Shown here one piece after another: positions 2,981-55,090 of a DNA stretch of 64,000 bases (its first letter is position 1; each line of letters starts with the position of its first letter). The translations under genes were made by a program, and so were the position numbers. The DNA comes from an uncultured Opitutales bacterium. GTDB taxonomy: Bacteria; Verrucomicrobiota; Verrucomicrobiia; Opitutales; JABDGR01. The notes under the pieces are model-generated. The model was not told where the DNA came from, did no database searches, and worked only from the letters and a program-made list of their open reading frames with translations. Location of the stretch: positions 24,021 to 88,020 of the forward strand of contig CAZLRH010000002.1 in assembly GCA_964562015.1 (NCBI GenBank), given 5' to 3'.

Positions 2981-3292
2981 ATGCCGTCCCTCGCCCAAGT
3001 CCGCTGCTACCACCATGTCGAGCGCGAAGCCGTGGCGCGGTGTCCGGCGTGCGGTCATTGCTACTGCCGCGAATGCATCACCGAGCACGACGACCGCGTC
3101 ATTTGCGCGGCCTGCCTTGCGAAATTGACCCGCGCGGCCCCGCAAAAAAAGATGAACTGGGCCGGCTTGGTTTATCTCGTGGGCGGCGGCGCGGGCCTGG
3201 TGGTCGCGTGGCTTTTCTTTTATTTGCTGGGCCATTACCTGCTCGGATTACCCACGGCGTTCCACGACGGAACGCTGTGGACGACCCACTGA
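2981..3292 (+). CDS. small B-box/Zn-ribbon membrane protein (hypothetical)
   Basis: RCYHHVEREAVARCPACGHCYCRECITEHDDRVICAAC, followed by a TM helix (LVYLVGGGAGLVVAWLFFYLL). Resembles the Cys-rich part of the 1771..2349 product. Confidence 0.5.
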   Translation: MPSLAQVRCYHHVEREAVARCPACGHCYCRECITEHDDRVICAACLAKLTRAAPQKKMNWAGLVYLVGGGAGLVVAWLFFYLLGHYLLGLPTAFHDGTLWTTH

Positions 3293-3302
3293 ACCGCCCG
3301 CC

Positions 3303-4991
3303 ATGAATCCGGCCCACCGCCCGCGCCAAGGCAAGACCGCCCTCGAAATGCTCGAGGAGGCGACGCAACTGCTGCGCACGTGTCCGTGGTCGGTGCTGGC
3401 CAGTTACTACACCGGCACGCTGCCGTTTGCGCTCGGCTTGCTGTATTTTTGGACGGACATGGGGCGCAACCCGTTCGCTGCGCGGCATGTGGTGGAAGGA
3501 GCGCTGGGGATGGCGTTGCTCTTTGCGTGGATGAAAGGCTGGCAGGCGGTGTTCGTACAACAATTGCGCGCCCGCCTGAGCGGAGCCCGCGACGCACCGT
3601 GGGACGGGGGGCGCTGGCGGCGCGTGCTTTTAACCCAATTGCTGCTGCAACCGGCGGGCCTATTCCTCGTCCAAATCACGCGGGTTTTTCTGCTGCCCTA
3701 CCCCTGGGTGAACGCCTTTTTTGAAAACTTGCTCGTCCTCGATGACGGGCGGGAACTGCGCGTGCGCGCCCTGTGCCGGCAAGCGTGGCGCTTGGCTGGG
3801 CTGTGGCCCCGGCAAAACATCCTGGCGATTCTCCTGCTTTGGGCCTTCAATTTTTGCGTCTTCCTCAATTGGGCGTCCGTGTGCATGTTATTGCCTCACT
3901 TGGTGAAAATGCTCACCGGCCTCGAGTCCGTGTTCACCCAAAGCAGCCTGGCGATGGTGAACTCGACCACCTTCATCATCGTGCTGACCCTGACATACCT
4001 CAGCGTAGACCCCATCGCCAAGGGGCTGTACGTGCTGCGTTGCTTTTATGGGGAGTCGCTGCGTTCGGGCGACGACTTGAAGGCGGAATTGAAAAGCGCG
4101 GCCCGCCCGGCGGCAGCCCTCGCGGCCACCCTGGCCCTGGCCGTTTTGGCGTTGAGCGTGCGACCTGGGCACGCGGCCGAAACGCCGACGGCTTCGCCGC
4201 CGGTCGCGCCAGAGAGCGCCGGCAGTGCCGGGCCGCCTTCGCCCGCCGCCACTCCGCAGGCGGTTTCGCCGCCGCAATTGAATCAAGCCATTGGCGAGGT
4301 GATTCACCGGGACAAATTCGTCTGGCGGATGCCGAAGGAAAAATTTGCCGAGGGCGACGAGTCCGAAAGCTGGCTCGCACAATTCTTCCACGAGGTCTAC
4401 AATACCCTGCGGGACTGGTATGATTACCTGCGGGATTTATGGCGCCGTTTCTGGGGCGAGGACGTCGCCAAGCCGTCGGCCCGCTCGCTCAGTTATGGCT
4501 GGATCACGTCGTCGCAGGTTTTGTTAATCAGCCTGATCTGCCTCGTGGGCGCCATCCTGGGCGTGGTACTGTACCGCACGCTGCGCCAGCGGGCCCGGCG
4601 GCGGGCGGTGGTGCAAAGCCAGCCCCTGCCCGCGCAGCCGGACCTGGCCGATGAGAACGTCAGCGCCGACCAGTTGCCCGAGGACGGCTGGACCACGCTC
4701 GCGCGGGAATTGCTGGCCCGCGGGGAATTCCGGCTCGCCCTGCGGGCCTTTTATCTTTCCAGCCTCGCGCATTTGGCGGCCCGGCAACTGATCGCCCTCG
4801 CCAAATTCAAATCCAACCGGGACTACGAGCGCGAATTGCGCCGCCGCGAACACGCCATCCCCGGCCTGCCCGGGCTCTTTGGCGAAAATGTCGTCGCCTT
4901 CGACCGCAGTTGGTACGGCCGCCATGAACTGAACGACGCGCTGGTGCGTCATTTCGCCGCCAACGTGGATAAAATAAAATCTCTCGAGTGA
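3303..4991 (+). CDS. DUF4129-type membrane protein (C-terminal transglutaminase-associated DUF4129-like domain)
   Basis: Multi-TM N-terminal half. C-terminal PEDGWTTLARELLARGEFRLALRAFYLSSLAHLAARQLIALAKFKSNRDYERELRRR fits the DUF4129 pattern. Sits upstream of DUF4350-MoxR-DUF58 as in the conserved cluster. Confidence 0.6.
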   Translation: MNPAHRPRQGKTALEMLEEATQLLRTCPWSVLASYYTGTLPFALGLLYFWTDMGRNPFAARHVVEGALGMALLFAWMKGWQAVFVQQLRARLSGARDAPWDGGRWRRVLLTQLLLQPAGLFLVQITRVFLLPYPWVNAFFENLLVLDDGRELRVRALCRQAWRLAGLWPRQNILAILLLWAFNFCVFLNWASVCMLLPHLVKMLTGLESVFTQSSLAMVNSTTFIIVLTLTYLSVDPIAKGLYVLRCFYGESLRSGDDLKAELKSAARPAAALAATLALAVLALSVRPGHAAETPTASPPVAPESAGSAGPPSPAATPQAVSPPQLNQAIGEVIHRDKFVWRMPKEKFAEGDESESWLAQFFHEVYNTLRDWYDYLRDLWRRFWGEDVAKPSARSLSYGWITSSQVLLISLICLVGAILGVVLYRTLRQRARRRAVVQSQPLPAQPDLADENVSADQLPEDGWTTLARELLARGEFRLALRAFYLSSLAHLAARQLIALAKFKSNRDYERELRRREHAIPGLPGLFGENVVAFDRSWYGRHELNDALVRHFAANVDKIKSLE

Positions 4992-6355: not shown

Positions 6356-7311
6356 ACGCAGACCGTCTCAAGGAAGTCCTGGCCGAAGCCAGGGCTGAAA
6401 CCGCCAAGGTCATCATCGGCCAGCACGAGGTCGTCGACCTGGCGCTCATTGCGATTTTCACGGGCAACCACGCGCTCATCGAGGGCGTGCCCGGCGTCGC
6501 CAAAACGCTGCTCGTGCGCACGCTCGCGCATGTGCTCGGGTGCGAATTCGCGCGCATCCAATTCACGCCCGACCTGATGCCGAGCGACATCACGGGCACC
6601 ACCATTTTCAACATGCAACGCAGTGAATTCACGGTTGCCAAGGGGCCCGTGTTCACGTCGTTTCTGCTGGCGGATGAAATCAACCGCGCGCCCGCGAAAA
6701 CGCAGTCCGCCCTGCTGCAGGCCATGCAGGAACGATGCGTGACCATCGACCGCGAGACGTACCCGCTGCCACCGAATTTCACGGTGTTTGCGACCCAAAA
6801 CCCCATCGAGTACGAGGGGACGTATCCGCTGCCGGAGGCGCAGAAGGACCGCTTCATGCTGAAGATCACGATGCGCGCCCCGGCCCGCGATGAGGAATTC
6901 ATCCTTGCCCAGCGCACGATGACCAAGGAGGCGCCGGAGGCCGTCCTGGCCCAGGGGGCGGTGCGCGCCGTGGTGCAATTGCAAGATTTGGCGGAGTTAC
7001 GCGAGCAACTGGCGGCCATCACCGTGCGCGAGGAATTGCTGGGCTACGTGGTGGACCTCGTGCGGGCGACGCGCCAGCATGAGAGCATCCTCGTCGGCGC
7101 GGGACCGCGCGCCACCCAGGCGCTCATCATGGCCGCCCGCGCGTGCGCCGCGCTGGCCGGGCGGGATTTCGTCACGCCCGACGACATCAAGACCATGGCG
7201 ACACCGGTGCTCGAACACCGCCTCATCCTGCGGCCCGAATTTGAAATCGAGGGCCTTGGGCTCATCGAAGTCATTCAGCAAATCCTCCAACAAATTGCGG
7301 TGCCGCGATGA
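6352..7311 (+). CDS. MoxR-family AAA+ ATPase
   Basis: IIGQHEVVDLALIAIFTGNHALIEGVPGVAKTLLVRTLAHVLG (Walker A), FLLADEINRAPAKTQSALLQAMQE (Walker B/sensor), and a C-terminal MoxR lid. ATG at 6352 overlaps the upstream TGA (ATGA). The ORF-track extension back to 6151 is rejected. Confidence 0.9.
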   Translation: MNADRLKEVLAEARAETAKVIIGQHEVVDLALIAIFTGNHALIEGVPGVAKTLLVRTLAHVLGCEFARIQFTPDLMPSDITGTTIFNMQRSEFTVAKGPVFTSFLLADEINRAPAKTQSALLQAMQERCVTIDRETYPLPPNFTVFATQNPIEYEGTYPLPEAQKDRFMLKITMRAPARDEEFILAQRTMTKEAPEAVLAQGAVRAVVQLQDLAELREQLAAITVREELLGYVVDLVRATRQHESILVGAGPRATQALIMAARACAALAGRDFVTPDDIKTMATPVLEHRLILRPEFEIEGLGLIEVIQQILQQIAVPR

Positions 7312-22604: not shown

Positions 22605-24473
22605 ATGCCCCGCATCCACATCCTGCCCGACCGCGTGGCCAACCAGATTGCCGCCGGCGAAGTCGTCGAGCGGCCCGCCGCCGTCGTCAAGGAACTGCTG
22701 GAAAACGCCCTCGATGCCGGGGCGCTGCATGTGGAAATCGAATTTCGCCACGGCGGCAAATCCTACCTCCGGGTCGAAGACGATGGTCATGGGATGGCGC
22801 CCGACGAGGCGATGCTCTCACTCGAGCGCCACGCCACGTCCAAGATTCGGGAGGCGGCGGACTTGCTGGCGGTGCGGACCTTTGGTTTTCGCGGCGAGGC
22901 GTTGCCGTCCATTGCCAGCGTGTCGCGTTTTCAATTGATGACCCGCGCACGCGAGGCGGCGGAAGGCACCGAAATCCTCGTCAATGGCGGCAAGCTGCTG
23001 CACCAGCGCGCGTGCGGCTGCCCCGTCGGCACGCGCATCGAGGTTGCCCATTTGTTTAATTCGGTGCCCGCGCGCCGCAAGTTTCTCAAGACGGATGCCA
23101 CCGAATCAGCGCATATCGCGCGCCTCGCCCGGCTCTATGCCATCGCGCACCCGCAGGTTGCGTTCACGCTGCTCGAGGACGGGCGCGTGATTTTCCGCTC
23201 GCCGCCCTGCCCGTCGCTGCGCGACCGCGTGGCGGAAATCTGGGGCCGGCGCGCCGCTGACGAGTTGGTGGAATTGCCCGAGACCAGGAACCAGGCCGCC
23301 GGCTTGCGCCTGTACGGGCTGCTGGGGCGACCGGGAGTGGGCCGGCCGACGCGCGACGGGCTCATCACTTTGGTCAACCGCCGGCCGGTGGATTCGCGCA
23401 CGCTGTCCTACGCGATTCTCGAAGCCTACCATACTTACGTGCCCAAGGGCCGCTACCCGCCGGCCATTCTGCTGCTCGAGATAGATCCCGCAGCCGTGGA
23501 TGTGAATGTGCATCCCGCGAAACGCGAAGTGCGCTTTCGCGACGAGGCCGGCGTGCGCCAATTCGTGCTTTCCGCCGTGCTGGCACAATTGCGCACACCG
23601 ACGGGCGAAGGGGCGAAGCCCGAAATTTCAACCTTCAGCGTTCAACCTTCAACATCCAACCCGCAACGCCCACCACCCCAACTCCCCACCCCTGCACCTA
23701 TCATGCAGACGCCGGTCCTCGTGGCGCCCCAACCTTGGCCTCGGCAAGAAAAGCAGAAAGAATCAACCATTCAGCATACGTCTACTCCCGCGGCGTTGTC
23801 TGCCAACCCAAGAACACCTGCGCCAGGCAGTCGCCCTTCATTGGAGGTTGAACGTTCAACGTTGAATGTTGAACGTTCGCTGCCCGTCCGCCTCACGTGG
23901 CGGCTGATCGGGCGCTGGCGCGGGCACCTTTACCTCTTCGAATCGGGCTCGGGGCTGATTCTCTTTAATTCCCGGGCGGCGCACGAACGCGTCTGGTTTG
24001 AGGAATTGCGGGCGCGCTTTGCCGGGGCGAATGCGCCGTCGCAGCAACTCCTCTTTCCCCTGCCGCTCGAACTCGAACCGCTGCCGGCGGCGGCGCTGGA
24101 GGAATTGCGCCCCTGGCTCAATGGCCATGGTTTTGCCCTGGAGCCCTTTGGCCGCAACTTTTTCCGCCTCGAAGCCACGCCCGACTGGCTCGACCCCGCG
24201 CACGCCGAGACCTTTCTGCGCGACCTGGCCGACCTCGCCCGCGAACGGGGCCCAGCGACCGAACTGCCCAACGACGACATCGCGCGCCTCGCCGCCACGC
24301 GCGCCCTGCGTCTCGGTGATCAACCCTCGGAACAGGAGATTCGCTCGTTGGCCCAACGGCTGCTCGGCACCAGCCAGCCGCTCACCTGCCCGCGCGGGCG
24401 CTCGACCTTCATCGAACTCTCCGCGACCGACCTCGCCCGCCGTTTCGGCGGCGACGCGGAGGTGCTTGATTAA
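22605..24473 (+). CDS. mutL: DNA mismatch repair protein MutL
   Basis: RIHILPDRVANQIAAGEVVERPAAVVKELLENALDAGA (GHKL ATPase motif I), ...GFRGEALPSIASVS. C-terminal dimerisation domain present. Start MPRIH. Confidence 0.95.
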   Translation: MPRIHILPDRVANQIAAGEVVERPAAVVKELLENALDAGALHVEIEFRHGGKSYLRVEDDGHGMAPDEAMLSLERHATSKIREAADLLAVRTFGFRGEALPSIASVSRFQLMTRAREAAEGTEILVNGGKLLHQRACGCPVGTRIEVAHLFNSVPARRKFLKTDATESAHIARLARLYAIAHPQVAFTLLEDGRVIFRSPPCPSLRDRVAEIWGRRAADELVELPETRNQAAGLRLYGLLGRPGVGRPTRDGLITLVNRRPVDSRTLSYAILEAYHTYVPKGRYPPAILLLEIDPAAVDVNVHPAKREVRFRDEAGVRQFVLSAVLAQLRTPTGEGAKPEISTFSVQPSTSNPQRPPPQLPTPAPIMQTPVLVAPQPWPRQEKQKESTIQHTSTPAALSANPRTPAPGSRPSLEVERSTLNVERSLPVRLTWRLIGRWRGHLYLFESGSGLILFNSRAAHERVWFEELRARFAGANAPSQQLLFPLPLELEPLPAAALEELRPWLNGHGFALEPFGRNFFRLEATPDWLDPAHAETFLRDLADLARERGPATELPNDDIARLAATRALRLGDQPSEQEIRSLAQRLLGTSQPLTCPRGRSTFIELSATDLARRFGGDAEVLD

Positions 24474-48803: not shown

Positions 48804-48874
48804 GGAAAACCGGTCATAGTAAACAGAATTTGGGGGTTGGAAAATGGAAAATGAAGGCGTTATTGCTGTTACTG

Positions 48875-49864
48875 ATGAAAGTCCTTCTGACGGGTGCCTC
48901 GGGATTGGTGGGCCATGCGGCCATGCATTCTGCGCTCGCGCGCGGGCACGAGGTGTTCGCGCTCGGGCACGGGCGCATGCCGCCGCTGCCGGTCGAGGCT
49001 GTGGCCCAGGGCCGCGCCCGGGCCTTGCAGGTCGACCTCACCAACGAGCACGCCATCGAGCGGCTGATTTTTGATTACTACCCCGACGCCATCATCAACG
49101 CCGCGGCCCTTTCCAACAACGCTACCGTGGAGGCCGCGCCGGCGCTGGGGGAAAAACTCAATATTGCCCTGCCGCGCCGGCTCGCGCAACTGTCCCATCA
49201 TTTGAGCGCGCGGTTTCTGCATCTTTCCACCGACGCGGTGTTCGACGGCGAGGGCGGCCCGTACCGCTCGACCGACATGCCCGCCCCGCGCACGCTCTAC
49301 GGCCAGCAGAAACTGGAGGCAGAAAAGGAGGTGCTCCGCGTGGGCGGGGGCAATCTGGTCGTGCTGCGCATCACCATCGTAAACGGCAACAGCCCCTCGG
49401 GCCGCCGAAGCATTCACGAAAAACTTTTCCACGCCTGGGCCAAGGGCGAGGTCACGCCGTTGCACACGGACGAATTGCGCCAGCCGGTGTCGGCGGACAA
49501 CGTCGGGGATGTGCTCACGGAATTGCTCGAACGTCCGAATTTGCACGGCCTGTTTCACTGGGCCGGCCCGGATTCGCTCACGCGTTTCGAAATCGGCCAG
49601 CAGATACTGAAACACTTCCACCTGCCGGAGAATTTTATCCGCCCCATCCGGCGCGCCGACCTGCCCAGCGGCGAGAAACACCCGCGCGCCCTGGAGTTCA
49701 TCCTGCCGCCGTTGCTCGGCAAGGTCGCGGCCAAGCCCACGCCGTTTGCCCAGCAAGTGGAAGAACTACAAGTGCCCGCCGAGCTGCAGGAATGGTATCG
49801 GAAGACACGGCTCTCCGGCGGGGAGGCGCCCGCGCGGCGGCTCGTACAGGGGCGCGATTTCTGA
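48875..49864 (+). CDS. NAD(P)-dependent sugar-nucleotide reductase (RmlD/dTDP-4-dehydrorhamnose reductase-like)
   Basis: MKVLLTGASGLVGHA, HLSTDAVFDG, YGQQKLEAEK (YxxxK). In-frame upstream ATGs at 48830/48851 are also possible. Confidence 0.75.
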   Translation: MKVLLTGASGLVGHAAMHSALARGHEVFALGHGRMPPLPVEAVAQGRARALQVDLTNEHAIERLIFDYYPDAIINAAALSNNATVEAAPALGEKLNIALPRRLAQLSHHLSARFLHLSTDAVFDGEGGPYRSTDMPAPRTLYGQQKLEAEKEVLRVGGGNLVVLRITIVNGNSPSGRRSIHEKLFHAWAKGEVTPLHTDELRQPVSADNVGDVLTELLERPNLHGLFHWAGPDSLTRFEIGQQILKHFHLPENFIRPIRRADLPSGEKHPRALEFILPPLLGKVAAKPTPFAQQVEELQVPAELQEWYRKTRLSGGEAPARRLVQGRDF

Positions 49865-50679
49865 TGGAAACGCTCCTCGTGCTTCCGCACCGCGTGGCCG
49901 ACGCCGCCGAAAACATGGCGCGCGATTGGCTCCTGCTTGATTCGTTTGCTGGATCGGATTTCCCGCGCCTGCGCACTTATGGCTGGAGCAAACCGGCGTG
50001 GACATTTGGCTATAGCCAGCGCTGGCAGCAAGTTCGCGAAACCGTTGGCGCCGATGTAGAGTTGGTGCGCCGCTCGACCGGCGGCGGCGTGGTGGACCAT
50101 CGCGCGGATTGGACGTATGCGCTCGTGTTGCCCGCGACGCATCCCTGGGCCCGAGCAAAAGCGGCGGAAAGTTATCGCGCCGTTCATCAAGCACTGGCCG
50201 AGGCGCTGAAAATTTTCGGCGTACCGGTTTCATTAATGGCTTCAGCGCAAAAGGTAGGGACGCCTCTCCGAGGCGTCCGTTCCGATGGCCTTCAGCTTGT
50301 ACCAGACGGACGCCTCGGAGAGGCGTCCCTACCCCGAAACGAAGCCGGAAAATTTTCCCTCCAACATCCTTCCACTGCTTCCTCCGTTTGTTTCACCCAA
50401 CCCGAACTCCACGACGTGGTGCGGATGGACAATGGAAATAAAATCGCGGGGGCGGCGCAAAAACGCACGCGGAAAGGACTGTTGCTGCAAGGCTCCATCA
50501 GCCGCGCCGCGGCGCCTGAGGTACGAGATTGGGACGCGGTCGCTTCGGTATTCGCAAACACACTGAGTCACTTGCTCAAGGACAAACCGCAGCCCTGGTC
50601 CGGCGAAAGTGTTAATCCGTCGCTGCTCGTGGAGGCCCAAGCGCGTTTTGCGTCCACTGCGTGGAACGAGCGGCGATGA
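49864..50679 (+). CDS. lipoate/biotin protein ligase (BPL/LplA/LipB) family protein containing an in-frame 27-codon palindromic insertion
   Basis: ...RSTGGGVVDH, KIAGAAQKRTRKGLLLQGSI (catalytic Lys region). The 81-bp perfect palindrome at about 50253-50333 is translated as VGTPLRGVRSDGLQLVPDGRLGEASLP. Confidence 0.7.
   Translation: METLLVLPHRVADAAENMARDWLLLDSFAGSDFPRLRTYGWSKPAWTFGYSQRWQQVRETVGADVELVRRSTGGGVVDHRADWTYALVLPATHPWARAKAAESYRAVHQALAEALKIFGVPVSLMASAQKVGTPLRGVRSDGLQLVPDGRLGEASLPRNEAGKFSLQHPSTASSVCFTQPELHDVVRMDNGNKIAGAAQKRTRKGLLLQGSISRAAAPEVRDWDAVASVFANTLSHLLKDKPQPWSGESVNPSLLVEAQARFASTAWNERR
50253..50333. repeat. 81-bp perfect inverted-repeat element (27-nt arms, 27-nt spacer) embedded in frame in a CDS
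   Basis: GGTAGGGACGCCTCTCCGAGGCGTCCG ...27 nt... CGGACGCCTCGGAGAGGCGTCCCTACC. Arms are exact reverse complements. Each arm also contains the internal palindrome GACGCCTC/GAGGCGTC. Confidence 0.8.
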
Positions 50680-50740: not shown

Positions 50741-52441
50741 CTAGCGTTTTCGCTTACGCAGCAAAACCAGTCCGCTGGCGCCCAGCGCCATGACCAAGGC
50801 GACCGTGGATGGCTCGGGCGCGGGGGTGTAAGTGAAATTGCCCGGGTTGAGCGTGATTTCGACATACATGTTGTCCAACGCGGAGGAGGAGTTGAGCGGA
50901 TTGTAAAACACATCCGGGTTGAGGCCGCCTTGGATGCGGTCGGAAAAAGCGAAGGTGTAGGCATCGGTTTGCGTGGCAAACGCGCCGGAGTAGGAATTGT
51001 AGAACTCGGGGTTGATCTGAATACTGCTGCCCACCCACTTGGCGATGTCGGTATTATTCCCCTGCAAGGAAAGGAGATAGAAGAACTGACCGGAGGACAG
51101 GTTGCCGATGGTCAAATTGGCCGAGGCGTTGCCCGAGGCAAAGATGGAATTATTAAGGTTGGTCGTGGTGCTTGTGTTCCCCGCATGGCCCAAAACGGTT
51201 TCCCCATTGGTGGCCAGGCCGAAATTGAGATCCGCCATGAGGTCGCCCACCACCCGGTCCATGAGATTGTTGGAATTCACCGTGCTGACCGCGGTGCCAT
51301 TCCAATAGGCGACGTAGCTGGGGTTGGCGCCATAGATGCCGTTGATGTTGTCGAGTTGGGAATCCGTGACGAAAACATCGAAGCTCCCGACACTTCCGCC
51401 CGAGCCACTGATGATGACTCCGGAGCTGCTGCCCGTGATACCCTGGCCGCTGAGCGCAGCTATCTCGGTGCCGCTCAGCCCAGCCGTGAGGTTGGACTTA
51501 AAAGTGGCGTTCATGTTGTAGCTTTGATTTTGCAGAAAAAGATTGCCGGTGTCCGCCGGAAAGGGGGTGGTGCCCTGTCCCGCCTGGGTGCCGGCGTAAC
51601 CGAAAATCGTGCCCGCCAGCCGTTGTCCGCCCGGGGGCGTAAAGCTCGAGATGTTTAGCGAAATATTATTGCTTCTCATCCACGGGATGAGGGCAGTATT
51701 GCCGACGTTGCCGGTCGCGGGCGCGAGCCAGCTGTGATAATCAGCAATCGGAGGGACGCCGACGATGCGGGCCGTGCCGCTCAAATTACCCAGCGTGGCG
51801 CCGCTGGAATTGACCACGGCGTAGTTGGCGGCGATACGGGCATCGAGCGGCGTGACCACGGTACTGGCGGTCAGGAGATTAAAAATGGTCGGACCGGGCG
51901 TGGTGTTGATCTCGTTCGCCTGTCCGGGGAGCGTGACGAGGCTGCCATCGGCGCGCGATTTGATGGCAAAGTCCGCCGGCATGCTGACGAAGTTCACATA
52001 CGAGGTGTCCACGTTGTTTTGCGTGCTCCCCGCATTGATGTAGGTTTCGAAACGCGCGGACACCAAGGGGTCGGTGGACCCCGGAGTGTTGCCGCCAATC
52101 TGCGTGCCCGCCGTGAAATCAATAAAGCTGTTATAGAAAGTTCCGATATTGACCGTGGAAACAATCCCCGTGGGCCCGCCGGCCCCGGCGCCGGAGACTG
52201 TGCCATACAAGTCCGCGAGGCTGTAAGAAGTGGACAGTGCACCAGCACTGCCATTGCCGAGAGTCACGTTGCCAAACACCGTTGCGCCGCCGCCGACAAA
52301 GGTCAGGTACAGGGCATCATCCGGGATGCCGGTGTTGTTGACGATGACCAGTTGGGTCGTGTTGTTTTGAGCAAAAGCGGCCGGACCAAGCAATCCAGCG
52401 CCCAGCGCGAGCGAAACGGACACAAATAAACGCAGCTTCAT
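50741..52441 (-). CDS. PEP-CTERM-anchored secreted protein, Asn/Gly/Thr/Ser-rich (beta-helix-like)
   Basis: Signal peptide MKLRLFVSVSLALGAGLLGPAAFA. C-terminus PAPEPSTVALVMALGASGLVLLRKRKR is a canonical PEP-CTERM sorting motif (PEP, TM helix, basic tail). Confidence 0.8.
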   Translation of the reverse strand: MKLRLFVSVSLALGAGLLGPAAFAQNNTTQLVIVNNTGIPDDALYLTFVGGGATVFGNVTLGNGSAGALSTSYSLADLYGTVSGAGAGGPTGIVSTVNIGTFYNSFIDFTAGTQIGGNTPGSTDPLVSARFETYINAGSTQNNVDTSYVNFVSMPADFAIKSRADGSLVTLPGQANEINTTPGPTIFNLLTASTVVTPLDARIAANYAVVNSSGATLGNLSGTARIVGVPPIADYHSWLAPATGNVGNTALIPWMRSNNISLNISSFTPPGGQRLAGTIFGYAGTQAGQGTTPFPADTGNLFLQNQSYNMNATFKSNLTAGLSGTEIAALSGQGITGSSSGVIISGSGGSVGSFDVFVTDSQLDNINGIYGANPSYVAYWNGTAVSTVNSNNLMDRVVGDLMADLNFGLATNGETVLGHAGNTSTTTNLNNSIFASGNASANLTIGNLSSGQFFYLLSLQGNNTDIAKWVGSSIQINPEFYNSYSGAFATQTDAYTFAFSDRIQGGLNPDVFYNPLNSSSALDNMYVEITLNPGNFTYTPAPEPSTVALVMALGASGLVLLRKRKR

Positions 52442-52641
52442 AGTGGCAATGTGGGTAGCTAATTCGACTAAATGGGTCAACGCGCAAAACATGGCTCAAA
52501 GCAACCCTTTGTCATACTCGTCGCCAGGCCCGACCTGCTGGATTTCGATTGGATGATGTACGGCATCGCTTAGTTTGACTCGACGACGCAGAGCTTGCGG
52601 CGGTAACAATCTAGTCCCGCTCCTTAATTCTATTTTACTTC

Positions 52642-53872: not shown

Positions 53873-55090
53873 ATGAACGCTCGTGCGCAAATTCTGCCGC
53901 TCCGTGCGGTTACTGCGGCCTGGACCCTCGCCGGGCTGGCCTTGCTGGCTGGCTGCGGAAAGTCCAATCAGGCGGCCCCCGCCGGCATGCCGCCCTCGCT
54001 GGTGACGGCCGCCACGGCCACCGCCCAGGATGTGCCCAAATACCTGGACACCATCGGCCAGACCACGGCGTACGAGGCGGTCAATATCGTTTCCCAAGTG
54101 GAGGGCCAGATCATCGAAATGCCCTTCCAGCAAGGCTCCCTGGTGAAAAAAGGCGACGTGCTGGCCGTGATTTTCCAGCCGCCGTTTGTCGCCGCCGTGG
54201 AGCGGTCCTCCGGGGTGGTCGCCTCTGACGAGGCCAACCTCGCCATCGCCAAGTTGCAGGTGGAACGCAGCCAACCGCTGACGGCCGACAACCTCGTTTC
54301 GAAACAGCAGTACGACACCTGGCAGTCGCAGGTCAAAGCCCTCGAGGGCCAGTTGGCCGTGGACAAGGCCAACCTCGACCTCGCGAACATCAATCTCGGC
54401 TACTCCACCATTCGCGCGCCGGTCGACGGCATGGTGGGCGTGTACAAGATCAACATCGGCAATGTCGTCAAAATCAACGATGCGCCAATCACCACCATCC
54501 AGCGCATGGACCCGATTTACGCGGACTTCGTGGTGTCGGTGACGGATTTTCCCGCGATGAAAAAATATTTCGCCGACAACGGTGGAAAACTCGGCGTGCA
54601 CGTCGAAAGCCTCTCGGACGCCACGCAGGCCAAGGACGGTAATTTGACGATTCTCGGCAACGCCATCTCCGCCTCCACGGGCACGGTCTCGGTGCGCTGC
54701 ACGATGCCGAATGACGATTTGCTCTTCTGGCCCAACGAACCGGTGCACGCCCGCATTTTGCTGACGACCCTCAAGGACGCCGTGCTGATTCCCAAGGAAG
54801 CGGTGCAGTTGAACCAGCAGGGCCGCTTCGTGTTTGCCATCAAACCGCCCGCCAAAGCCGGGGACCCGGAAACCGTCGAACAGCGCCCGGTGGAAATTGG
54901 CCAGCCGCAGGAAGGCGGCCTGATTGTCGTCAACTCGGGCGTCAAGGTTGGCGAAAAAGTCGTCGTGCGCAACCCGCTCTTTTTGCAGGACGGCGGCCCG
55001 GTCATGGTGGCGGAATTGGACGGCAAATCCCTCCTGCCGCCGCCCGATGCCGGCCGCCGCGGCGGCCCGCCGCCCGCGGACAAGAAGTAA
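53873..55090 (+). CDS. efflux RND transporter periplasmic adaptor subunit (MFP) 1
   Basis: Lipobox LAGC. IGQTTAYEAVNIVSQVEGQIIEMPFQQGSLVKKGDVLAVI (lipoyl/beta-barrel MFP core). About 70% identical over the core to the 58591..59814 product. Confidence 0.9.
   Translation: MNARAQILPLRAVTAAWTLAGLALLAGCGKSNQAAPAGMPPSLVTAATATAQDVPKYLDTIGQTTAYEAVNIVSQVEGQIIEMPFQQGSLVKKGDVLAVIFQPPFVAAVERSSGVVASDEANLAIAKLQVERSQPLTADNLVSKQQYDTWQSQVKALEGQLAVDKANLDLANINLGYSTIRAPVDGMVGVYKINIGNVVKINDAPITTIQRMDPIYADFVVSVTDFPAMKKYFADNGGKLGVHVESLSDATQAKDGNLTILGNAISASTGTVSVRCTMPNDDLLFWPNEPVHARILLTTLKDAVLIPKEAVQLNQQGRFVFAIKPPAKAGDPETVEQRPVEIGQPQEGGLIVVNSGVKVGEKVVVRNPLFLQDGGPVMVAELDGKSLLPPPDAGRRGGPPPADKK

Follow-up and report, generated by a model that had tools for sequence, protein, structure and literature searches.

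What is a perfect 81-bp palindrome doing, in frame, inside the gene of an ordinary enzyme? The question is raised by a stretch of 64,000 nucleotides from an uncultured Opitutales bacterium (contig CAZLRH010000002.1, hereafter the window), in which positions 50253–50333 form a perfect inverted repeat within a gene of the lipoate/octanoyl-protein ligase (LplA) family. Very probably, the palindrome is a dimer of repetitive extragenic palindromic (REP) units, with the tetranucleotide tag GTAG at its two outer ends, that is, a head-to-head (HH), REPIN-like dimer. It would have been mobilised by a REP-associated tyrosine transposase (RAYT) and been inserted, with the reading frame kept, where the gene encodes a disordered loop; the insertion would be old, and its arms would stand at the family consensus as a result of concerted evolution.

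A repeat search resolved the palindrome into two arms of 28 nt (50253–50280 and 50306–50333), 100% complementary to each other, with 25 nt between them. A previous reading of this DNA, made from the letters alone (the sequence-only reading), had proposed 27-nt arms around a 27-nt spacer; its total length of 81 bp and its perfect pairing were found again, whereas the partition is in fact 28+25+28. No other inverted repeat of comparable class exists anywhere in the 64-kb window, and the count of second arm copies expected by chance at three mismatches or fewer, as estimated from shuffled sequence, was 0.00. A point missed in the sequence-only reading is that each arm is a mini-hairpin of its own, GGACGCCTC-NNN-GAGGCGTCC, with a 9-bp stem and a 3-nt loop, and GTAG in front (50254–50257, and 50329–50332 on the opposite strand). 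The left REP unit (50253–50278, plus strand) consists of a G, the GTAG head (50254–50257), the stem strand GGACGCCTC (50258–50266), the loop TCC (50267–50269) and the stem strand GAGGCGTCC (50270–50278). The right unit (50308–50333, minus strand) is its reverse complement and reads GGACGCCTC GGA GAGGCGTCC CTAC C on the plus strand. Between these two 26-nt units lies a spacer of 29 nt (50279–50307), whose outer 2 nt on each side are still paired. Folded as a single strand, the element forms a 29-bp stem, at −68.4 kcal/mol for the sense RNA (z −10.2) and −41.1 kcal/mol for the DNA.

The unit belongs to a large dispersed family. A scan of genomes, one per species, for the core hairpin, with all 18 of its specified bases required to match exactly, yielded at least 120 stretches, mostly in Verrucomicrobiota (Opitutales and others), Lentisphaerota and Kiritimatiellia, and also in Acidobacteriota. 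Among the matches listed, to which the family counts given here and in the next three paragraphs refer, single metagenome-assembled genomes (MAGs) contributed many contigs: dozens came from one Ca. Acidoferrum MAG, and a Verrucomicrobiae MAG had several sites. The family unit is oriented, G-GTAG-GGACGCCTC-NCC-GAGGCGTCC; of the core-hairpin matches, about 85% have the flank GGTAG...CTACC. At five mismatches or fewer, 210 units were collected, in which the T, A and G of the head were conserved in 183, 195 and 201 units, respectively, GTAG being kept in about 90%. Among the 210 units, 40 are identical to the left unit of the window, a frequency exceeded by only one other variant.

Variation within the family reveals which structure is maintained. 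Stem variants are compensated inside the unit, as in GGACGGTTC...GAACCGTCC, and in 78 distinct units both sides of the mini-hairpin change at six of the nine pairs. The covarying cells numbered 28, versus 3.3 ± 1.5 in shuffles (none of 500 reached the observed number), and sliding the partners abolished the signal. Therefore, the conserved structure is the 9-bp mini-hairpin of each unit and not the long stem between arms; a stem of 27–28 bp as the conserved structure was not borne out, since the covariation lies within each arm. Heterodimers, whose arms pair poorly with each other, are frequent in the family.

Units were often found in close pairs, 53 of 62 of which had GTAG outside, and the dimers measured 54–108 bp. 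Their size is typical of the genome: 68 bp in Ca. Acidoferrum, 103–104 bp in one Verrucomicrobiae MAG, 54 or 78 bp in Lentisphaerae, 83–84 bp in Opitutus MAGs, and 81 bp in the window. It is by its perfect arms, its fold and this family geometry that the 81-bp segment at 50253–50333 is recognised as a REP dimer with its GTAG ends outside. Copies within one genome have spacers of fixed length and unrelated sequence. In Ca. Acidoferrum locus L025, for example, four 68-bp HH dimers (564–631, 3088–3155, 4293–4360 and 7135–7202) have 16-nt spacers, the sequences of which all differ.

The genomic context of the family was assessed by the phase of GC content at third codon positions (GC3). A coding-like, in-phase context was found for 4–6% of the family elements, versus 35–54% of random positions in the same loci. 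This test misses the window's own gene as coding, the GC3 of which is unbiased, and only the comparison with random positions was used. A test based on stop-free stretches was dropped, because random positions reach 86% in these high-GC genomes. By this comparison the family is predominantly extragenic, and the window copy an exception of a kind that is on record (PMC3733652).

REP sequences are usually lineage-specific. A near-identical 26-nt unit across Verrucomicrobiota, Lentisphaerota, Kiritimatiellia and Acidobacteriota (loci L003–L122) suggests either horizontal spread of REPs and RAYTs or a very strong constraint. Searching a plasmid collection with the window element gave no real match, and a full-text literature search for the unit sequence or the peptide returned nothing but unrelated primer-like matches. 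The supplement text of PMC3733652, its consensus figure aside, contains neither the unit sequence GGACGCCTC-NCC-GAGGCGTCC nor the peptides VGTPLRGV and GRLGEASLP.

RAYT genes were found beside the repeats in related genomes. Three of the four that were inspected (L124 from Opitutaceae, L126 and L127 from Kiritimatiellia) have, on both flanks, heads-out dimers of GGTAG-headed 9-bp hairpins, and the unit of L124, GGTAG GGACGCCTG ccct CAGGCGTCC, is nearly that of the window. In L077, an open reading frame (ORF) of 152 aa (1571–2029) adjoins family units and matches the NCBIfam model REP_Tyr_transpos (E 2e-20) and the E. coli enzyme TnpA_REP (PDB 4ER8, E 4e-8). An E. coli RayT probe was used solely to locate this ORF. 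Its 1,257 database relatives, many of them called RayT by their sources, are found in Verrucomicrobiota and Kiritimatiellia. L124, L126, L127 and L077 thus present a RAYT flanked by repeats of this kind, the arrangement known as a REPtron. Directly upstream of the RAYT-like gene of L077, a single family unit (1117–1142) lies in frame (GGRLGEASLP) within low-complexity (GNDGG)n sequence, in an ORF of 407 aa (169–1392).

The gene that carries the palindrome in the window (49864–50679, plus strand) encodes a protein of 271 aa, identical to database protein P0001. Its frame runs through the element, with the translation VGTPLRGVRSDGLQLVPDGRLGEASLP that had been reported for an in-frame position in an LplA-family gene. 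The ORF matches the Pfam families LplA-B_cat (PF21948, E 3e-14, 53.8 bits versus a cutoff of 27) and PF03099, whereas with the NCBIfam LplA models the scores were far under the respective cutoffs. A database search returned 563 homologs. An AlphaFold2 (AF2) model of the protein was obtained with a mean per-residue confidence (pLDDT) of 85 and a predicted TM score (pTM) of 0.81, and Foldseek aligned it with LplA catalytic domains of the PDB (E about 1e-13). Fold and family signature place the protein in the lipoate/octanoyl-protein ligase family, as a predicted ligase, octanoyltransferase or amidotransferase. Cys176 and Lys193 were invariant in an alignment of 23 sequences.

The element lies in a disordered, hypervariable loop (residues 129–171; 50248–50376, plus strand) between the strand of residues 122–124 and the invariant Cys176, as judged from pLDDT, alignment gaps and loop lengths. 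It codes for residues 131–156 and for parts of codons 130 and 157. In the model, pLDDT fell below 50 for residues 129–159 and 162–171, while the remaining fold was confident. Most homologs, of about 235 aa, lack the segment, and the region is rich in gaps in the 23-sequence alignment, in which the 27 residues are, as had been supposed, an insertion relative to most homologs. Among 71 metagenomic relatives, a motif-based measure gave loop lengths of 16–47 aa. The central claim of the sequence-only reading therefore stands: a miniature palindromic repeat element sits in a permissive stretch of the ligase without breaking the frame. The segment is missing from most homologs, and its arms are members of a large dispersed family. 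This reading also explains, for annotation, an odd 27-residue segment of low confidence in an otherwise ordinary enzyme.

A 10-nt self-complementary word, GAAAATTTTC, occurs twice around the loop region (50208–50217 and 50348–50357, 140 nt apart). It was considered as the target-site duplication of a larger insert and rejected, for the first copy falls in the coding block ALKIFG that is conserved in all homologs. This repetition is probably a coincidence.

How a REP dimer may have come to extend an enzyme can be pictured as follows. By analogy with known systems, REP units would lack autonomy and depend on a RAYT transposase of the HUH/Y1 class, which would process them as hairpins of single-stranded DNA. 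Such an enzyme may have moved one dimer, as a single-stranded hairpin, into the DNA coding for the disordered surface loop. Because 81 nt make 27 codons, and because the phase avoids the TAG contained in the GTAG head, the frame would have stayed open and the loop been extended by 27 residues, a peptide that was presumably tolerated as a passenger. The mRNA would then hold the 29-bp stem of the element.

When this happened was examined by comparison with orthologs. The syntenic locus L001, whose ligase (P0002) is 64% identical to that of the window, also has an element, which is likewise 81 bp long and whose position, to the codon, is that of the window's. The arms of the two elements are identical at 51 of 54 nt, versus 69% for the rest of the gene (P about 4e-6), and at 17 of 18 third codon positions, versus a background of 53% (P about 2e-4). 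In contrast, the spacers, although equal in length, share only 7 of 27 nt, as expected at random. In the L001 arms, two mismatches are uncompensated, and a third position can still pair in the sense RNA, as G-U; the peptides encoded by the arms, VGTxLRGVR and GRLxEASLP, are kept in both proteins. The homologous segment of an ortholog is thus palindromic, and the element has many relatives; a single-copy element without relatives, facing non-palindromic DNA in the orthologs, is not what was found.

The closest relative of the window, as judged by flanking genes, is another locus, L123 (ligase P0003): its epimerase is 89% identical to that of the window, versus 79% for L001, and its downstream protein 84%, versus 57%. 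The tree derived from the flanking genes is ((window, L123), L001). The ligase gene itself (49864–50679) shows only 65% amino-acid identity to that of L123, whereas the genes on its two sides (48851–49864 and 50741–52492) show 89% and 84%; so large a gap between the ligase and both neighbours suggests that this gene evolves fast or has been exchanged.

Most simply, and most likely, the dimer was inserted once, before the window and L001 lineages separated, and was later largely deleted in L123. Thereafter the spacer would have drifted freely, while the arms were held at the family consensus. It is most likely conversion or replacement, from arm to arm or from copy to copy, that kept them there, perhaps together with selection on the hairpin, rather than youth.

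Several findings weigh against a REP dimer with this origin and history. L123, although closest, has no element; where the left arm of the window begins with GTAGGGACGCCTC, the homologous position of L123 reads GCAGGGGCGTCTC. This match of 10 of 13 nt hints weakly at a decayed copy and has no locus-wide significance (0.65 such matches expected by chance). No RAYT gene was detected in the 64-kb window by a tblastn search that covered it and all loci, nor in a 9-kb extension to the right. Over about 73 kb of the source genome (the 64-kb window plus 9 kb past its right edge), no GT[AG]G-headed hairpin was found besides the window dimer. The RAYT-like ORF of L077 scored 73 bits, slightly below the NCBIfam cutoff of 80 bits, and a Pfam scan of it gave no match. 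Finally, spacers of fixed length and free sequence run counter to the copying of whole units, and likewise to the conservation that HH spacers show by a published rule of thumb (PMC3733652).

Whether the arms of an old element can remain perfect may be judged from other lineages, in which the same loop has also received REPs. At least five REP families were found in this ligase loop, in 8 of the 71 analysable metagenomic relatives and in L130, L001 and the window, and the host gene of the other loop dimers is often syntenic with the window ligase. In L130 (2008–2114) the loop contains GTAG GGGCGCAG..., arranged as a tail-to-tail (TT) dimer with GTAG inside. In L148, L155 and L158 it contains GTGG GAGCGAGC-TT-GCTCGC, a Pseudomonas-type REP that recurs, unannotated, at as many as 27 places on a single Pseudomonas plasmid. 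GTAG GAGCCCAT-TT-ATGGGC is present in the loop of L160, and GTGG AGCGCGTTG-accc-CAACGCGCT in that of L191, L194, L197 and L202, the last with an extra tandem unit. Tandem arrays of heptamers fill the loop in L128 (1825–1881, CAGATKG eight times) and L129 (1839–1872, GTTGCAG five times); their 7-nt period, within an open frame, gives peptides such as LQIADYRLQMADG and LQVAGCRLQVA.

Two comparisons among these loops are informative. L148 and L155 reproduce the pattern of the window and L001: their proteins are 68% identical and their third codon positions are saturated, at 47%, while the arms are 100% identical and the spacers different. L148 (445–501) and L160 (1185–1259) share 90% nucleotide identity outside the element, as well as both ends of the spacer, which differs by an 18-nt indel. 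Eight positions of the inner stem differ in both arms, as mirror images, and are fully compensated (GAGC-TT-GCTC versus CCAT-TT-ATGG). Given the shared spacer ends and the 90% identity, the same insertion should be ancestral to both loci, and a mirror-image swap at 10% divergence is very unlikely to result from independent point mutations. The pair points to conversion or replacement of the REP dimer in situ, in other words, to concerted evolution of its arms. Since arms can change in concert, the perfect arms of the window need not mean that the element is young. The earlier argument that zero mismatches imply a recent origin thus finds no support, in view of the presence of the element at the corresponding position of the 64%-identical syntenic L001 and of the concerted change of arms in a related case.

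The best competing account agrees that the element is a REP dimer, and holds that the window and L001 lineages acquired, or reacquired, it independently, the loop or a remnant of a REP acting as a hot spot and the arms being near the consensus because they are young. We consider this possible, though rather unlikely. It would account for the absence of the element from L123, given the tree ((window, L123), L001), and for spacers that are as unrelated between the window and L001 as those of separate dimers of one genome. Repeated insertions into the loop do occur, as the five or more REP families of other lineages attest, L148 and L160 document an exchange of arms at one site on a short timescale, and differing REPs have been reported at about the same site of Xanthomonas recB genes (PMC3733652). 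Independent insertions would, however, have had to place their junctions at exactly the same codon and to be 81 bp long both times. No shared target motif is found in the flanks of the elements. Moreover, GCAGGGGCGTCTC in L123 stands exactly where the left arm would start, which suggests the decay of an ancestral copy, and neither donor copies nor a RAYT are visible in the 73 kb of the source genome.

A bolder extension, which we hold to be doubtful, is that the loop just before the invariant Cys is not simply permissive but a preferred site of REP landing or replacement. Dimers would there be overwritten repeatedly to match the current REPs of the genome, by RAYT or by conversion templated on the hairpin, or else would persist through an effect of the hairpin or of the loop extension that tunes the expression or activity of the enzyme. 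If the loop were such a preferred site, this gene family would offer a natural system for following the long-term renewal of REPs at fixed sites.

That the palindrome evolved locally, or was selected, as a cis-regulatory hairpin of the mRNA (for instance an RNase III site, or a cause of ribosome pausing) that controls the ligase, its likeness to REPs being secondary or an exaptation, is improbable. The 29-bp stem would be very stable in the sense RNA (−68.4 kcal/mol, z −10), the arms are conserved as nucleotides, third codon positions included, while the hairpin loop is free to vary, and action at the RNA level has been argued for many REPs (PMC3733652). Yet the unit is conserved at hundreds of non-coding places in several phyla, and what covariation supports is the mini-hairpin of each unit, in a family where poorly inter-pairing heterodimers are common. 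The L001 arms already carry two uncompensated mismatches and one G-U, the closest relative L123 does without the element altogether, and an Rfam scan of the region matched no family. The scan gave solely sub-threshold scores for microRNA precursors, which were set aside as the response to generic long hairpins.

Still less credible is the view that the 27-residue peptide itself was selected as a functional extension of the loop, the DNA palindrome being incidental. Two divergent lineages have kept the frame open and share the conserved peptides VGTxLRGVR and GRLxEASLP. However, identity at 17 of 18 third codon positions of the arms, against the background of 53%, indicates a constraint at the nucleotide level. 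In addition, the segment is predicted to be disordered, neither L123, the closest relative, nor the majority of homologs have it, and unrelated REP families, with unrelated peptides, occupy the same loop elsewhere.

Chimeric fold-backs can yield perfect palindromes in some library types, but an artefact of this or another kind, from assembly or sequencing, is practically dismissed, because the element lies in frame inside a long contig, because an independent ENA assembly matches the region with one mismatch in 20,816 nt and has an identical element, and because the ortholog of another organism carries the element with its own substitutions. Readings as an invertible switch or a CRISPR-like repeat were dropped as well: each unit is a single GTAG hairpin of a RAYT-associated kind, the spacer measures just 25–29 nt, and neither recombinase nor cas genes lie nearby.

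With the RAYT-mobilised REP dimer retained as the preferred explanation, its closest counterparts are the GTAG-tagged REPs defined by Di Nocera, De Gregorio and Rocco (2013, BMC Genomics 14:522; PMC3733652), who also described HH dimers (GTAG outside), TT dimers and REPtrons. Those REPs have an unpaired GTAG or GTRG at one end, stems of 5–13 bp, loops of 2–20 nt and compensatory changes. They share with the present family the unpaired terminal GTAG, the 9-bp stem, the short loop and the dimers with GTAG outside; they too are mostly intergenic, with some dimers in ORFs that encode 20–30 residues, and they likewise occur in hosts of the Verrucomicrobia and the wider Planctomycetes-Verrucomicrobia-Chlamydiae (PVC) group, together with REP-flanked RAYTs. 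In that survey, Opitutus terrae (Verrucomicrobia) had the most intragenic GTAG REPs, and over half of its inserts were dimers or groups coding for 20–30 residues. Differences are that the ligase is absent from the published list of targets, that the HH spacers are variable here, and that the present unit is common to several phyla. What is new is therefore a REP sequence family common to several phyla and a new host gene, whereas in-frame REP dimers in genes, notably in Verrucomicrobia, had already been published.

REPINs (REP doublets forming hairpins), as defined by Bertels and Rainey (2011, PLoS Genet 7:e1002132; PMC3116915), likewise consist of two inverted REPs and a spacer in a long hairpin, with arms more conserved than the spacer, a conserved spacer length and an association with RAYT. 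The 28-nt perfect arms, the 29-bp stem and the prevailing orientation of close pairs (53 of 62 among the matches listed) agree with this description. Classical REPINs are, however, extragenic and form, in each genome, populations of near-identical whole units, whereas the window element is intragenic, spacers are unrelated between copies even in genomes with many copies, where only their length is fixed, and the source genome shows, over about 73 kb, neither a population nor a RAYT. As near-identical copies of whole units are lacking, the element is called REPIN-like and not a REPIN.

The sequence-only reading had related the palindrome to the Rickettsia palindromic elements (RPEs). The likeness holds for behaviour, a palindromic repeat lying in frame in a protein gene and adding a peptide, as a passenger, in a permissive region. 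It does not extend to class, the window element being a GTAG-tagged, RAYT-associated REP dimer in PVC and Acidobacteriota hosts. RPE-4 and RPE-6, which are short intragenic elements of Rickettsia, are CGTC-tagged REPs without an associated transposase, and RPE-1 is longer (PMC3733652). The element is hence RPE-like in behaviour and not an RPE, a distinction drawn from tag and hosts rather than from direct sequence comparison.

Further counterparts are the REPs of E. coli, which occur in bacterial interspersed mosaic elements (BIMEs), and their enzyme TnpA_REP (PDB 4ER8; Messing et al. 2012, PMC3479197). There, too, an HUH/Y1 enzyme recognises the hairpin form of a GTAG-headed imperfect palindrome, and it is the structure of that enzyme that the RAYT-like protein beside the family units of L077 matched, at E 4e-8. 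Stem sequence and host phylum differ, and the present family is known from sequence alone.

Beyond these systems the locus adds something modest, an intragenic REP dimer at an orthologous site across a deep divergence, with arms at the consensus and a randomised spacer. Together with a loop that holds at least five REP families, and in which one pair of close relatives had both arms rewritten as mirror images, this provides sequence-level evidence for concerted evolution or for replacement of REP dimers in situ.

Other features of the surrounding DNA were recorded. A cluster of overlapping palindromes, built on GTTGAACGTTCAACGTTGAA, is located at 23839–23874 of the window, and a GC-rich overlapping palindrome, CCGCCCGATGCCGGCCGCCGCGGCGG..., 81% complementary, at 55040–55079. 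Just past the right end of the window (L211, 14857–15456), a gene pair for a HigB-like toxin and an HTH_3 antitoxin lies downstream of a resistance-nodulation-division (RND) efflux operon.

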